DNA of 64,000 bases from assembly GCA_965208905.1 (NCBI GenBank), contig OZ242365.1:288001-352000 (forward strand), given 5' to 3'. Under the pieces are notes generated by a model. That model ran no database searches, was not told the origin of the DNA, and saw nothing but the letters and a program-made list of their open reading frames with translations. Position 1 is the first letter of the stretch, and each line of letters starts with the position of its first letter. Of this stretch, positions 33,904-59,999 are shown in pieces. The position numbers and the translations under genes are program-made. The DNA comes from Nitrosopumilaceae archaeon. Lineage in GTDB: Archaea; Thermoproteota; Nitrososphaeria; Nitrososphaerales; Nitrosopumilaceae.

Positions 33904-34014
33904 GACTCCTCCCACAAAGTTGAGTTATACTATGTTGCCCCTCTGAGATGGTCGGACAGCCCTCTTGTATGGTGCGGGGCGATACACGACGGGGTTTGAC
34001 CATATTTAGATACG
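33904..34014 (-). mobile_element. Degenerate solo 3' end of the 41442-43057 tnpB element family
   Basis: GACTCCTCCCACAAAGTTGAGTTAT matches the TIR at 20/25; shared blocks CACGACGG and GACCATAT...GATACG follow in the same order as in 41467-41610. Confidence 0.55.
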
Positions 34015-40268: not shown

Positions 40269-41387
40269 TTATGTTTGTTTTAACTGTCCCATATTATCTA
40301 AAATGTCGTGGATGTTATTAGGTCCAAGTTTTATATTGATATTATATTGCTTTATTTTATATTGTTTCATATCTGGAGGTATTTTTAATAATTTATACTG
40401 TCTGGATTCTGCATTAAAAGGTAGGTTCAATCTCTCGGATATAGCAACCATCTGTTCATAGTCAGGCAATGCCAGTATCGGGTTTAGTTGGGCATCGTAT
40501 ATTCGATGGAGTAATTTATCTACATATAAGCCTGGAAAAATGATTCTAGATATAGGTAATGTTATGTGTGATATGTTGTGATCTTTTGCGATATTAATGG
40601 CTAGTTCGGTGGCAAGTATCACCATATTTAAAAATCCTTGACCTCCTGATGATACTTTATGTATGGTTAATTGTATTTTTTTGTGTATTAAGTATGGAAG
40701 TATTTTATTGATTATCTTTGCCAGATTTGTCAAATCACTCTCCTTTCTGTATAATGCAAGAATTTTGGTATTGTAACCCATCCGTATGGTCTCCAAACAT
40801 GCCATGGCAGACATTTCATCAAATATGCACGATACCGCCTTGCCCTGCACCCCCATTGGCAAGCCTCCAAAGCACTTGTCTTCAAATATGGATATGTAAG
40901 CATTACTCTGTGTCATGTATACATATAGTAGTTTATCATGTCGGTCTTGTGTACCAGGTCGTACATTTTGTGATGACTTTTCTTCTATTATGGATGAAGT
41001 TATTGCCATCTCGGCATCTTTTGGTAGAAATCCTCTAGAGTATCCTTCTACCTGCACATAAAATGTCTCGTTTCCCAATAATAGATTTCCACCTACTTCA
41101 GTGGCGACCTCTACAATGTCGTTGTAATCATTCTTTATCTGTCTGGCTATGAGCACTTTTTCTATGCCGTATAGCCGCTCAATGGCCGATGACGCAAAGA
41201 CCGGATCATGAGCTTCGACCAGTATAAGGTGCTCATCTCTACATATTGAGGTGTATGGTTCGTCTTCAATCTTTAGGACGTTTTTTATGCATCGTATTAA
41301 CGTGCGTATATACTTTTTAGCGTGTAGTGATGTAAATACAACCACAAACGATTTTGTTGCCATCGTGTACATGACTACACCCCCCAC
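40269..41387 (-). CDS. ThiI-like THUMP-domain protein with degenerate PP-loop
   Basis: LYGIEK, THUMP-like region, GGLP.G.QGK followed by SCIFDEMS instead of LSGGxDS. Confidence 0.7.
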   Translation of the reverse strand: MGGVVMYTMATKSFVVVFTSLHAKKYIRTLIRCIKNVLKIEDEPYTSICRDEHLILVEAHDPVFASSAIERLYGIEKVLIARQIKNDYNDIVEVATEVGGNLLLGNETFYVQVEGYSRGFLPKDAEMAITSSIIEEKSSQNVRPGTQDRHDKLLYVYMTQSNAYISIFEDKCFGGLPMGVQGKAVSCIFDEMSAMACLETIRMGYNTKILALYRKESDLTNLAKIINKILPYLIHKKIQLTIHKVSSGGQGFLNMVILATELAINIAKDHNISHITLPISRIIFPGLYVDKLLHRIYDAQLNPILALPDYEQMVAISERLNLPFNAESRQYKLLKIPPDMKQYKIKQYNINIKLGPNNIHDILDNMGQLKQT

Positions 41388-42981
41388 ATAATTTCTTTTT
41401 GGAGTCGTGTCTATGATATGAACTATGCCTATAAGTAGCGGGGTTCCTCCCGCAAAGTCGGGTGATTACACCCCCCGCCATGCGGGATAGCCTGTCAGCC
41501 CAGTTGCTCCAGCAACCCTGTATGAGTGGTGTGGGATCGAGGATTACATCCACACCACGACGGACTTCGCCCAGACTGGCCGAAACCTTACGACCATATC
41601 GGGATACGGCGCTTGTTCGCCGTATGTTCTCCACTGCGTTGACGTCGCGATCTACGCCAACCGTATGGCAGCGGGTGCAGTCTTTTTTATGATAAGCTCC
41701 AGTTAGTGGGGTTCTACATGCAGCACATAGCTTGGATGTGTTGTGTGGACGCATATGTAATGCCTCTACTCCCAAAAATTGGGACTTTTCATAAATTAAA
41801 TTCGATGCTTTTCGCATCATGGCAGAATGTAACCTGCGACGCATATTATGGCCAAACTTCCCATTCTTCTGCCAACCATACGATATATGGGTTAAATCCT
41901 CCAACATCACCAAGCACCCGGATTGTGCGGCCCACTGTGCTATACATAACGCTATCACATTCAGCACATGTTCGTGGTGGCGCATGGCTTTGGCCACCCT
42001 GCGCTTTTTAGCATTCTTCCTTGATTTTGTGTGGTTATGTGGTATGCTCAATATGCATCTGCTCATCTGCTTCTTTATCTCGGCGGCCCTCTTGTGTTTG
42101 CCCTCCCTCTTGAGTTTATTGTATCTGCGTTTGAGTTTGCTGTGTAACTTGTGACCACCATGTGTGACTTGTTGCTTTTCTCTGCGCTCCTCCTCTTTCT
42201 TGTGTACAACACACCTTCCGGTACGTGCCGCATATGCGATATTATCATGTGTACGGGTATACGTATTGTTTACATCCTCAGTCTTTGCCCCCTCAATGGC
42301 CTGTATCGTGTATGATAGATCAAACTGTACCATTGTATCTTTATCACCTACGGTGATGTTCTTTTCATTAATATCCACGCCAATTACATCCTTTGGTGTA
42401 CCGCCCACACAGCCCACATCCGTAAGTAGTTCGATAATCTCTGACTTGCCGTGTGGGTGGGATTTTTCAACCTTGGGCACTTTGTTGTAATATGTAATGG
42501 TATATGTGGTTGGCGTGATCCACAACTCTCCCAACTCATTTTGCCCTATTTTACGTACCACATCTGAAGAGACGGGAATTGCTATCATATGTGGGTGTTT
42601 TGATGAGCCAACATTTGCAATAGCCATATATCCACCCGCTATCGGATTCAGCCTCCAATCTTGGTTTTTCAACTTTACAACCGGATTACGAAATATAGGT
42701 TCAGACACCTTCGTGCCCTGCGCAGCCTTTGTATTGTACGTTTTATGGGCGGCAACCCCGTCCCGTATGGCGGTCTGCGTTATGGACGAATATACTTTGG
42801 GGTCAGGGCCGCGCATTATATGATATATTAATGCGTTAACACCATAGGTATTCTTCCCCGTGTTATCTGCTATAATGTACGCCACTTCTGCCACCTTCCT
42901 GACATGTTCAAACACATGTCGCATGCCCAAATTTTTTGTGTATGGACGTGTTACTGCCCTGCTATTTTTGACTAGAGCCAT
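41317..42981 (-). CDS. tnpB: TnpB-like RNA-guided nuclease (large, Lys/His-rich insert); ORF reads through the TIR into host DNA
   Basis: RuvC-I GVDIN, RuvC-II LEDL, TSKLCAAC...CTRC Zn finger, RuvC-III DRDVNA; ATG 42981 preceded by TTAAATA at about -29. Confidence 0.85.
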   Translation of the reverse strand: MALVKNSRAVTRPYTKNLGMRHVFEHVRKVAEVAYIIADNTGKNTYGVNALIYHIMRGPDPKVYSSITQTAIRDGVAAHKTYNTKAAQGTKVSEPIFRNPVVKLKNQDWRLNPIAGGYMAIANVGSSKHPHMIAIPVSSDVVRKIGQNELGELWITPTTYTITYYNKVPKVEKSHPHGKSEIIELLTDVGCVGGTPKDVIGVDINEKNITVGDKDTMVQFDLSYTIQAIEGAKTEDVNNTYTRTHDNIAYAARTGRCVVHKKEEERREKQQVTHGGHKLHSKLKRRYNKLKREGKHKRAAEIKKQMSRCILSIPHNHTKSRKNAKKRRVAKAMRHHEHVLNVIALCIAQWAAQSGCLVMLEDLTHISYGWQKNGKFGHNMRRRLHSAMMRKASNLIYEKSQFLGVEALHMRPHNTSKLCAACRTPLTGAYHKKDCTRCHTVGVDRDVNAVENIRRTSAVSRYGRKVSASLGEVRRGVDVILDPTPLIQGCWSNWADRLSRMAGGVITRLCGRNPATYRHSSYHRHDSKKKLCGGCSHVHDGNKIVCGCIYITTR

Positions 42982-43057
42982 CACATAGTACGGTTCAATA
43001 ACGTATTTAACACTATCCAACACACATCAACTATCACCCGACTTTGCGGGAGGAATC
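41442..43057 (-). mobile_element. Non-autonomous TIR element (1616 bp) carrying only tnpB; 25-bp TIRs, 8-bp TSD AGTAGCGG
   Basis: GGTTCCTCCCGCAAAGTCGGGTGAT at 41442-41466 and ATCACCCGACTTTGCGGGAGGAATC at 43033-43057 (1 mismatch); AGTAGCGG at 41434-41441 and 43058-43065. Confidence 0.9.
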
Positions 43058-43098
43058 AGTAGCGGTAAGGCTTTTATGGATTGTAAAAACCGCATATT

Positions 43099-43410
43099 AT
43101 GATGCCCAGTTGCCCTGAATGCACTGCCACCGAGAAGAAGAAGGTTCAAGCTAGATACGAAGCTAGTGTTCCCGAGGAGGATCGCCGACGTGATGATTTG
43201 TACAAACTCTTTGATGCCATAGACTTTCCCATGAAGGCGGATCCAAGCACTAAGCACTTTATCTGTAAACGATGTGGATTATACGCTACCAGAGAGCAAG
43301 TCTCCGATATACGAGCCAGACTGAACCGTCGGGTAAAGACCCGTCAGGACATACAGGATGATTATTTAGACTGGTGGCAAAAGAGCAAAAAAGACAAAAA
43401 TTTAGCTTGA
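43099..43410 (+). CDS. Small Zn-finger hypothetical protein
   Basis: CPEC ... CKRC; DYLDWWQ C-terminus. Confidence 0.75.
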   Translation: MMPSCPECTATEKKKVQARYEASVPEEDRRRDDLYKLFDAIDFPMKADPSTKHFICKRCGLYATREQVSDIRARLNRRVKTRQDIQDDYLDWWQKSKKDKNLA

Positions 43411-51643: not shown

Positions 51644-53109
51644 GGGAATTATATACAAAAGTACACAACCCCAATTCTGAGAGTTAATGCCTGAACCACG
51701 GATCGCGTCCATACAACTCCCCTTAAATACCAGCATACCGTATTATATATTATGATACGAATAGTTAAGGTACCGCTACGGAGAGATGTGCGGTTCGCGG
51801 AGTGGGCGCACCGCACGAATCATGCGTCAAGATATGTGTACAACCGCGCCGTATCAGAGTATTTGTTTGGCGGCGAATACATGGAGAGGGTGGTAGTGGA
51901 CATCCTGCAGCCCTTTAAACTACCGGGCAAGCTGGATTTTACATCAGGTATGCTGGACGATGACTACCATACATATGATTTTGGGCCGTCAAAGAGGGCA
52001 TTAAAGTACGGCATGTTCAAGCAGCTTACGGAGTGGCGCGCTGAACATGCATGGGTATCTGACTTGCCTATGGTGTTTGGCAGGGGCGCCATACAGGATG
52101 CCTCCGTCGCATGTAGACGAGTTGTAGATGACAACTCCGGCCACGCGCCATACCGCCGCAAAGATGGCCGCATCATACTTAGTTCCGTTACACCGCCTGT
52201 ACGGAAAGATAGCCATACGGTACATATCCCCGGATATGGTATTGTAGAGACCGCCAATCCCATCAATGTATTATGGGACATGCGGTCATTCAAGATAGTT
52301 GATGTTACCAAACGGGTGGACAAGCATACCGTACAATCAGACCACATGTTTGAGCTGCATATTGCCATATATGAACCGATGGAACCGCACCGTACTACGG
52401 GTACAATACGGGGTGTCGATGTGGGAGGCAAGCACCTCGCCGTCACGGTAGATACGGACGGCAACGTTACAATACACAACACCCGCCATAGAGCAATCCT
52501 GCGGGAGATTGACGCTCTCAAGAGTTTGCGCGACCGCAAGACACGGCATGGCCGGAAGTGGCATATATTGAATGACCAAATAAAGCGGCTATACAGGAAG
52601 GCCAACAACATAGCTGCGAACACCATAAATCAGACGATTGTACAGATAACCAATGGTGTGGACGCAGTCGTGGTCGAATCGCTCTCCGTAAAGGATATGA
52701 CCACCCATGGCGGGAATTACAAACGCGCCATGAACCGTTCAATGCGGGAGAACCATGTTGGGGAGTTCCTGCGCAAGCTTGCGCAGTGGTGTGATATACA
52801 CAACATACCGCTGTTGGGGGCATCGGCCAAATATACGAGCCAGACGTGCCATGTGTGTGGGACGGTGGATGCCGAGTCGCGTATATCACGCGACAAATTC
52901 ATTTGCACTAATTGTACCAGGGTATTCCACGCGGATGTCAATGCCGCCTGGAATATTCTGTATAGGGCGGCGGGGAAGATCGTCCTAAGACGGCCAGGGC
53001 ACAAGGAGGACTACAAGCCAACACCTTCTATGCTCCACTGTATACAGAAAAGTCGTCAGAAAAGGCATGAGTGTACAGCCGAGGCTGTGTACTTTTGTAT
53101 ATAATTCCC
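51644..53109 (+). mobile_element. Non-autonomous TIR element (1466 bp) carrying only tnpB; perfect 24-bp TIRs, 8-bp TSD TTTCAAGA
   Basis: GGGAATTATATACAAAAGTACACA at 51644-51667 and its exact reverse complement at 53086-53109; TTTCAAGA at 51636-51643 and 53110-53117. Confidence 0.92.
51752..53104 (+). CDS. tnpB: TnpB-like RNA-guided nuclease
   Basis: RYVYNRAV helix, RuvC-I GVDVG, RuvC-II VVESL, TSQTCHVCG...CTNC, RuvC-III HADVNAA; stop codon lies inside the right TIR; TTAAATA box upstream. Confidence 0.9.
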   Translation: MIRIVKVPLRRDVRFAEWAHRTNHASRYVYNRAVSEYLFGGEYMERVVVDILQPFKLPGKLDFTSGMLDDDYHTYDFGPSKRALKYGMFKQLTEWRAEHAWVSDLPMVFGRGAIQDASVACRRVVDDNSGHAPYRRKDGRIILSSVTPPVRKDSHTVHIPGYGIVETANPINVLWDMRSFKIVDVTKRVDKHTVQSDHMFELHIAIYEPMEPHRTTGTIRGVDVGGKHLAVTVDTDGNVTIHNTRHRAILREIDALKSLRDRKTRHGRKWHILNDQIKRLYRKANNIAANTINQTIVQITNGVDAVVVESLSVKDMTTHGGNYKRAMNRSMRENHVGEFLRKLAQWCDIHNIPLLGASAKYTSQTCHVCGTVDAESRISRDKFICTNCTRVFHADVNAAWNILYRAAGKIVLRRPGHKEDYKPTPSMLHCIQKSRQKRHECTAEAVYFCI

Positions 53110-59578: not shown

Positions 59579-59700
59579 GGTTCCTCTCGCAAAGACGGGT
59601 GGTGACGATAGTGTCTCGTATGATAGTCCCCAGTAAGGACACCGCGACAGACTGCGCAAAGTTTGGAAGTATGATAGGGGTTCATTTTAACGGCTTCGGC
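59579..59700 (-). mobile_element. Truncated relic of the 41442-43057 tnpB element family
   Basis: End GGTTCCTCTCGCAAAGACGGGTG at 59579 joined to tnpB Zn-finger relic GAEAVKMNPYHTSKLCAVCRGVLTGDYH (compare GVEALHMRPHNTSKLCAACRTPLTGAYH). Confidence 0.8.
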
Positions 59701-59828: not shown

Positions 59829-59999
59829 GGTTCTGGGAAATCAACGGGACATGACATGGAAGCCGCAGGTATCACTATCGAGGGCAATAGCAAGTACCTA
59901 ACCCTCATTCGAGCAGCCGCAGAATCAACATCTTAATCCCTCATTTTTTATGTCCCTAATTTCCCACTACATGTCATGTCCCGTTGATTTCCCAGAACC
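59829..59999 (+). mobile_element. MITE (171 bp) derived from an IS6-like element; perfect 30-bp TIRs, 8-bp TSD CCGGTAAA
   Basis: GGTTCTGGGAAATCAACGGGACATGACATG at 59829-59858 and its reverse complement at 59970-59999; CCGGTAAA at 59821-59828 and 60000-60007; internal EAAGITIEGNSKYLTLI resembles the C-terminus of archaeal IS6-like DDE transposases. Confidence 0.88.

Follow-up and report, generated by a model that had tools for sequence, protein, structure and literature searches.

A tnpB cassette with the ends of an IS6-like insertion sequence in a sponge-associated Nitrosopumilaceae archaeon

Six branches of TnpB associated with DDE transposases, on elements with inverted terminal repeats and with the 3′ end of tnpB no more than 250 bp from the transposon end, were described by Altae-Tran et al (2023); solo TnpBs that share their ends with transposase-bearing elements were also found, implying mobilisation in trans (PMC10691335). 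The partner family named in the main account of that survey is IS630 and a 2026 review lists ISL2, IS630 and IS1031 (PMC13565253); an IS6-like partner is named in neither of these lists. Here we describe element A, a tnpB-bearing element in a 64,000-nucleotide stretch (the window; positions 288,001 to 352,000 of contig OZ242365.1, forward strand) of the genome of a sponge-associated archaeon of the Nitrosopumilaceae. Element A is like the DDE-associated and solo TnpBs in having inverted repeats, a tnpB 3′ end near the element end and ends in common with a transposase-bearing element (PMC10691335). The best explanation overall, which we hold to be likely, is that A is a non-autonomous transposon in which tnpB and a guide-RNA region lie between the terminal inverted repeats (TIRs) of an IS6-like insertion sequence (IS), and which is moved in trans.

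Element A is 1616 bp long (41442..43057 of the window) and has no transposase gene, its sole long open reading frame (ORF; 41317..43023, minus strand) being tnpB-like. The inverted TIRs of 25 bp are identical at 24 positions. That at the tnpB-3′ end, here called the right end (RE; 41442..41466, minus strand), reads GGTTCCTCCCGCAAAGTCGGGTGAT and that at the tnpB-5′ end, the left end (LE; 43033..43057, minus strand), reads GATTCC.. with one mismatch to the RE. The target-site duplication (TSD), AGTAGCGG, is present as a direct repeat at 41434..41441 and 43058..43065, the left copy forming the first 8 nt past the 3′ end on the tnpB strand. A preliminary description of this DNA, made from the window alone, had given the same length, TIRs, TSD and lack of a transposase, all of which we confirm. 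It had also proposed a multi-copy family because the same end recurred at 59579 and 33904. The 16-nt end motif does have five matches in the window at up to three mismatches (shuffle expectation 0.29; none of 100 shuffles reached five). The end at 59579 is a good one, with mismatches at 1/16 and 3/25 positions, that at 33904 is weak (3/16 and 6/25) and neither belongs to a family repeated elsewhere. The end at 59579-59603 is a solo GGTTCC-type end with no partner end in the window; what lies behind it belongs to none of the elements A, B and C defined below. The family itself is multi-copy at the scale of the genome.

The genome (G000) is a single contig of 2.21 Mb with a G+C content of 45.6% and is 99.6% complete. 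We use A for the tnpB cassette family that includes the window copy, B for a second tnpB cassette, C for a decayed transposase-bearing element and D for a tnpB lineage with IS1595-type ends. By blastn, A has 12 full copies at 89-100% identity, and there are in addition one 5′-truncated copy, shorter pieces of 496 and 585 bp (fragments, or derivatives formed by deletion), and miniature transposable elements with inverted repeats (MITEs). Eight of the full copies are flanked by perfect 8-bp TSDs, all differing in sequence, and one by a 9-bp TSD with one mismatch. Between the window copy and that at 891631 the identity is 99.75%, but their TSDs differ, so at least one of them has moved recently. 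The preliminary description had suggested looking in relatives for an empty site with a single 8-mer, and this was found in genome G005, where the site orthologous to that of the window copy has a single ACTGGCGG between the same flanks (97% identical) and the element is missing. The G005 site of the copy at 239554 is likewise unoccupied, with one CATTATCA; at a third site the element is also missing, but the site is rearranged. Element A was not found in G005. The A copies diverge by about 9-10% from each other, yet three of three tested sites are empty in G005 (flanks 92-98% identical), and the copies seem older than their own insertions.

A transposase-bearing element with the same ends as A, element C (1536 bp), is present in the genome at 926302..927837. 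The coding sequence of C has homology to transposases with an IS240 domain, but it shifts frame at least four times and reads WGCEGK where intact relatives read WGCDEK. A DNA search with C gave matches in seven of nine other genomes of the same genus and in none of 31 genomes of other genera. Seven copies in these same-genus genomes (L015, L019, L021, L025, L026, L027 and L029) are 1442-1482 bp long with GGTTCC(T/C)C.. TIRs, and every one of them has perfect 8-bp TSDs and an uninterrupted transposase match. The partner transposase is a DDE enzyme of 388-396 amino acids with N-terminal SWIM-like (CxC..CxH) and zinc-ribbon domains. The L015 protein, 388 amino acids from the first ATG, shows its D, D and E motifs by eye and matches Pfam DDE_Tnp_IS240 (PF13610) at 30.4 bits (cut-off 27). 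Against NCBIfam its best match is transpos_IS6 at 73.8 bits, followed by IS1 at 41.9 and ISL3 at 23.7. These comparisons support as the probable autonomous partner of A an IS6-like IS with the same ends, intact in genomes of the same genus and a relic here. The preliminary description had inferred an IS6-type transposase as the mobiliser and had asked for DDE genes bounded by these ends; the one decayed copy here and the seven intact ones in relatives support it. The partner is an atypical, long IS6-like element, whose transposition we infer.

Members of the IS6 family are about 700-890 bp long and the usual IS6 transposase has about 230-250 amino acids, so the partner, at 1442-1482 bp and 388-396 amino acids, is nearly double in length. 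What A and its partner share with the IS6/IS26 family are GG-tipped TIRs, CAAA, 8-bp TSDs, a probable IS240-type DDE core and the rare occurrence of MITEs and passengers (PMC7986276, PMC6807381). The TIRs of IS6 members are short and combine a GG tip with the motifs cTGTt and caaa (Varani et al, 2021; PMC7986276), and the ends of A have both the GG tip and CAAA. The family reviews give one passenger-carrying member, ISDsp3, and in their accounts of the family tnpB is not mentioned (PMC7986276, PMC6807381).

Several observations tell against an IS6-like carrier. The transpos_IS6 score of the L015 protein is under the NCBIfam cut-off of 125 bits. The ends of A and its partner are without the cTGTt motif and have CCTCCCG in its place, whereas other IS6-like elements of the same genome do carry GGTTCTGTCAAGA and GGAACTGTCAAAA. 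An intact cognate transposase was not found in this genome, which has only the frameshifted relic C. Matching TSDs were not found in three of the 12 full copies of A, nor in three of the nine copies of B; cross-matching by eye of the unpaired duplications of the three A copies gave no swapped partners.

Given its score, its length and its extra zinc fingers, the partner is far from a canonical IS6 element, Harmer and Hall doubt the family membership of archaeal and long members (PMC6807381) and IS1595-type carriers of tnpB are present in the same genome. It might thus be argued that the ends come from another GG-tipped DDE family with 8-bp TSDs (ISL3, IS1595 or other) and that the likeness to IS6 is superficial. 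We consider this unlikely, since IS6/IS240 is the best match in both Pfam and NCBIfam and the IS1595-type elements here have very different ends (GGGAATTATA..). ISL3, which the preliminary description had kept as an alternative, is removed by its much lower score. A tnpB-less MITE with IS6-like ends also shows the swapped TSD halves expected of replicative IS6-type moves. This GGTTCT-ended MITE lies in the window at 59829..59999 (171 bp, ends GGTTCTGGGAAATCA.., TSD CCGGTAAA), and the IS6-like tail attributed to it earlier is real, its last 141 nt agreeing at 97.9% identity with genome 2095793-2095933, the 3′ end region of a gene of the IS6-like kind. It has eight copies in the genome, 100% identical, of which six have swapped TSD halves (one 4-cycle and one 2-cycle); such swapping is what intramolecular transposition of the replicative kind, or inversion between copies, leaves behind.

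The genome has 13 further paralogous genes of the IS6-like, IS240-domain kind, with other ends. None is close to C, the similarity among these paralogues stops at the ORF, and among TIRs sought up to 2 kb from the 13 genes none had GGTTCC ends. As the cognate IS is only a frameshifted relic here, the copies of A are probably immobile now, unless a paralogous transposase acts on them. Two of the 13 IS6-like transposase genes lie inside cargo transposons of 3.4-3.7 kb (genome 18695-22054 and 157876-161563), which have perfect 20-bp TIRs (GGTTCTGTCAAGATAGCGTG and GGAACTGTCAAAAACTTGTG) and 8-bp TSDs. At genome 924780-927837 (L011:101-3158) a B cassette and element C stand head to head with 8 bp between them (AGCGTTGA); the pair, 3058 bp in all, stands within a single 8-bp duplication, TTAAACTC, and looks as though it had moved as one.

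Most tnpB-only elements belong to the IS1341 group of IS200/IS605, and A is like this group in having a single tnpB, a structured 3′ region and many copies per genome. The flank motif of A described below, (T/A)TA followed by C, moreover resembles the TTAC target of IS608 (PMC13565253). Even so, it is extremely improbable that A is such an element, moved by a Y1 or serine TnpA, and that its TIRs are subterminal hairpins. The IS1341 group has no TIRs and no TSDs and depends on a Y1 TnpA, whereas nine of the 12 copies of A are flanked by variable 8-bp-type TSDs, the empty site has one 8-mer and the 25-bp ends are true inverted repeats common to a DDE IS. The Y1_Tnp profile gave no match in this genome, compared with matches in six of 14 control genomes, although serine recombinases were not searched. 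A Y1 or serine recombinase as the partner was the outcome that the preliminary description had set against its own proposal; it is a DDE transposase to which the TIR is tied.

The tnpB-like gene of A (41317..42981, minus strand, with ATG at 42981) has the RuvC D/E/D residues and a CxxC..CxxC motif, and its stop at 41317 lies outside the element. This is due to one additional G close to the 3′ end, shared by the window copy and its twin, which carries their frame beyond the element. Of the ten other full copies, eight have a frame that stops about 27-30 nt short of the element end, where the TIR has its inner edge, and two have shortened frames, the longest being 337 and 384 amino acids. Variation across the 12 copies is highest at third codon positions, which argues that the protein is under selection. 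Cas12f1-like_TNB is the sole Pfam domain found in it (28.8 bits, cut-off 26.3), and a large protein search gave just 27 relatives, the closest being annotated at source as a Cenarchaeum 'transposase'. An alignment of 18 homologues shows no variation at D217, E375 and D460, and each of the zinc-finger cysteines, four in number, is kept in at least 90% of them, C433 and C436 in all. A phmmer search of the PDB with the single A protein gave only chance integrin matches and weak Cas12 matches, so a profile search was needed; this gave Cas12f at 8e-9, plus TnpB chains. The AlphaFold2 model likewise resembles Cas12f and TnpB structures among the top Foldseek matches (E 4.6e-14 to 1e-7). The cargo of A, as judged from its sequence and model, is a divergent, intact-looking tnpB, a member of the RNA-guided nuclease family with the RuvC D-E-D residues, the zinc finger and a predicted TnpB/Cas12f fold.

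Element A is one of several kinds of tnpB cassette in the genome, which has 72 TnpB matches, 42 of them above the family cut-off. GG-tipped TIRs and 8-bp TSDs were found by a strict script around 22 of the 56 TnpB loci examined. Family B (about 1515 bp, nine copies) has the same kind of ends as A and 8-bp TSDs and carries an unrelated, canonical tnpB, whose product scores 145.5 bits against NCBIfam guided_TnpB (cut-off 100). One B copy, at genome 805876-808440, is split by a 1047-bp insert encoding a 343-amino-acid protein that by eye resembles a transposase of the rve type (IS481/IS3-like). Besides B, the loci with TIRs and TSDs include families with GGGAATTATATA.. ends. One of these is found in the window itself, an unrelated tnpB-only cassette of 1466 bp at 51644..53109, with GGGAATTATATACAAAAG TIRs and the TSD TTTCAAGA, which is one of at least ten copies; its ORF (51752..53104, plus strand) matches Pfam OrfB_IS605 and TNB. 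The transposase-bearing element with ends of this type is an IS1595-family IS at genome 675271..677401 (DDE_Tnp_IS1595, 138.6 bits). The type-2 TIR intervals of G005 (2.6-7.8 kb) were considered as autonomous elements combining IS6 and tnpB and were rejected. The three that were scanned (L111-L113) are tnpB cassettes with nested insertions of IS1595, IS66, DDE_1 and DDE_3, and no partner transposase for the type-2 TIR was found in them, the 2.6-kb interval L114 not having been scanned. In a distant relative, L136, GGTTC-type ends are present and no matching TSD was found.

By orienting all copies by tnpB and comparing the four bases directly outside the TSD at the two ends we found a motif that is restricted to one side. 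For A in this genome TA stands at -10/-9 in 14 of 15 LE flanks (TTA in seven, ATA in six and CTA in one) and in 2 of 16 RE flanks (background for TA 0.10; LE against RE, Fisher p = 7e-6). The sole exception on the LE side is the copy with the 9-bp TSD, where TTA abuts that TSD. The first TSD base after the motif is C in 11 of 15 cases and T in the other 4 of 15. A-like elements of genome G008 have TA in 2/2 LE and 0/5 RE flanks, and a lineage 35% identical to A, which sits in a different TIR (GGTTCTCTCGAAAA..), has TTA in 5/5 LE flanks, a count made on the LE side only. In B the motif is TTR, found in eight of ten LE and one of ten RE flanks in this genome. The B-like elements of G005 have it in 2/2 LE flanks with the original TIR type (LE side only) and in 7/7 LE and 0/7 RE flanks with a different TIR type (GGTTCTCGGACAAACTCTGGTCAA). 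At 60-66% protein identity, B-like elements in two further TIR types have by eye TTTG, CTTC or CTTG in the one and ATCA, CTCA or CTGT in the other. Lineage D, whose ends are of the IS1595 type, has ATNG in its LE flanks, the G at -9 being present in ten of ten. As controls, LE flanks of autonomous IS copies in relatives have TA in 0/15 and TTR in 1/15, and the 171-bp tnpB-less IS6-type MITE of this genome has the motif in 1/8, one side being counted in both. The flank motif therefore follows the tnpB lineage rather than the TIR type.

In its position and lineage specificity the motif looks like a target-adjacent motif (TAM), which for A would be (T/A)TA then a pyrimidine, and for B TTR. The motif sits exactly where the TAM is expected, provided that the guide begins with the TSD. 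For the window copy the candidate TAM is CTTA on the tnpB strand (43066..43069, minus strand), directly 5′ of the TSD, with TA at the position common to the LE flanks.

The 3′ end of A has features that would suit a guide RNA. Diversity among copies is lowest at element positions 1441-1530 (mean pairwise 0.042; 0.058-0.144 in other 90-nt bins). The putative omega-RNA region (41442..41660, minus strand), into which the tnpB ORF extends with its 3′ part, varies less than any other stretch of A and is predicted to form stem-loops. The final 42 nt or so are predicted to fold as a hairpin with the TIR as its 3′ arm, both in A and in all four TIR types of B, leaving 5-7 nt (..GAACC) free; in the window copy the final 6-7 nt (..GGAACC) are unpaired. 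One B copy folds at -21.7 kcal/mol (z -4.3) on the sense strand and at -6.0 on the antisense strand, the difference arising because five of the 15 pairs are G.U. No such hairpin was found at LE ends or at either end of the autonomous IS. Downstream of the B-type genes a conserved block with conserved helices runs to the element end, and 16 of 19 B-type elements, with four TIR types among them, have 157-161 nt between a conserved scaffold anchor in the block and that end, the other three having 149 nt. Since the variable B hairpins are not in register in RNAalifold, they were folded singly. No Rfam family matched 41200-43300 at E up to 1. The TIR hairpin may be the guide-proximal hairpin of the omega-RNA, rebuilt at each change of carrier. 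Taken with the one-sided motif it suggests a guide RNA that would read through the TIR into the TSD and flank and target the empty site; for the window copy the predicted guide, TSD plus adjoining flank, would lie at 41422..41441 (minus strand), as deduced from the geometry of motif and hairpin. A fixed internal guide, formed by the nucleotides after the conserved scaffold, is conceivable but leaves the flank motif unexplained.

The sequence of events that we propose has a carrier part and a cargo part. The DDE transposase of the partner IS would mobilise A in trans, each insertion duplicating 8 bp of the target. The omega-RNA would be transcribed through the 3′ TIR, which would supply the 3′ arm of its last hairpin, and the TSD with the adjoining flank would serve as the guide, the TAM being the motif 5′ of the other copy of the TSD. 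In the empty allele the motif would stand directly 5′ of TSD and flank, while beside it in the filled allele the match would extend for 8 nt only, so that the complex of TnpB and RNA could cut the empty allele and not the filled one. Retention or homing would then be favoured for copies that had landed beside a TAM. We lean, if only slightly, towards accepting this cargo part, that is, a read-through omega-RNA, a guide made of TSD and flank, and a TAM outside the TSD.

Other observations count against this proposal. Transposition, RNA and cleavage are all deduced and none was observed. The A protein scores 30.6 bits against NCBIfam guided_TnpB, under the cut-off of 100, and its AlphaFold2 model is only moderate (predicted local distance difference test, 69.7). 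The hairpin is weak in the 35%-identical lineage (z -0.7), and the conserved fold given by RNAalifold for 17 B-type 3′ regions has double changes in only six of 40 pairs. In contigs from four sponge metatranscriptome runs, 41453-41844 is covered at a word depth of about 24 and the flanks at about 4-5, but these contigs derive from other copies or strains, stop inside the TIR and are uninformative on ends, strand and level; they do not extend into the flank. Members of the IS6 family are believed to move by replication and not to excise (PMC7986276), and with such a carrier restorative homing of the IS605 kind would have nothing to restore. The autonomous-IS control comes from other genomes, which by eye look richer in GC. 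The LE flanks here are often AT-rich and TATA-like, and promoter context may explain part of the motif.

These last points also bear on a different explanation of the motif, to which we give a lesser but still substantial chance: that it is not a TAM and reflects target choice by the transposase, or selection for a TATA-like promoter driving tnpB. The hairpin would then only stabilise the mRNA and TnpB would be a passenger with a fixed guide or none. In many LE flanks of this genome the 8-10 nt upstream of the motif are AT-rich, which fits a promoter, and several autonomous-IS flanks are also TATA-like at -20..-13; that the RNA end is not seen in the contig data and that IS6-type elements are thought not to excise is consistent with a passenger. 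This explanation has difficulty with the variation of the motif by tnpB lineage (TA, TTR and ATNG), seen even though the TIRs of A and B are of one type, and with the persistence of TTR, 7/7, where the B lineage sits in another TIR type and the upstream flanks are not AT-rich. The motif adjoins the TSD even where the TSD is 9 bp, it is missing from the 15 autonomous copies, apart from one TTR, and nearly so from the MITE, and the G at -9 of lineages B and D is not TATA-like.

DDE-carried TnpB is of a published kind, and the IS6-like partner, the lineage-specific motif outside the TSD and the hairpin built from the TIR are, as far as we have checked, new details. The main text of Altae-Tran et al, where it deals with DDE-associated TnpB, mentions neither a TAM outside a variable TSD nor a TIR in a guide-RNA hairpin (PMC10691335). 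A literature search that did not cover supplementary partner lists gave no paper in which TnpB is tied to IS6 or IS1595 or a TAM is placed outside the TSD, and no such element is described in the account of thaumarchaeal mobile elements given by Krupovic et al (2019; PMC6563490). The nearest parallel for the use of the TSD is with the DDE transposons of Fanzor, which have in common with A an RNA-guided nuclease on a carrier with TIRs and TSDs and a part for the TSD in the targeting logic; in Fanzor the TAM includes a fixed short 5′ duplication, and the RNA scaffold includes the 3′ duplication (PMC13565253). The TSD of A, unlike that of Fanzor, is 8 bp long and variable, and would form the start of the guide with the TAM outside it.

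Extended to the genus as a whole, a tentative picture, about which our confidence falls just short of even, is that TnpB has left its Y1 partner and that transposase-less cassettes swap among DDE ends, comprising at least five GGTTC-type IS6-like TIR types and the IS1595 type. The guide RNA would have adapted to the carrier, with the TIR as a hairpin arm, read-through, and a lineage-specific TAM outside the TSD.

The IS6-like transposase and the tnpB cassette with the same ends make a testable partner pair, at a time when DDE-carried TnpB is known mostly from survey data. A and B would also offer two compact nucleases with defined 3′ scaffolds for assay, the predicted TAM being (T/A)TA in the first and TTR in the second. 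If the motif is the TAM, the logic of protecting one's own insertion has been rebuilt for transposons that duplicate their target, with the TSD becoming part of the guide. Any insertion next to a TAM would then act as an allele for homing or against loss, made by the element itself and directed at its own empty site, even with a replicative carrier, and this would be a prokaryotic solution to the TSD problem that differs from that of Fanzor. It would bear both on the rarity of TnpB on DDE transposons and on the origin of Fanzor-like arrangements.

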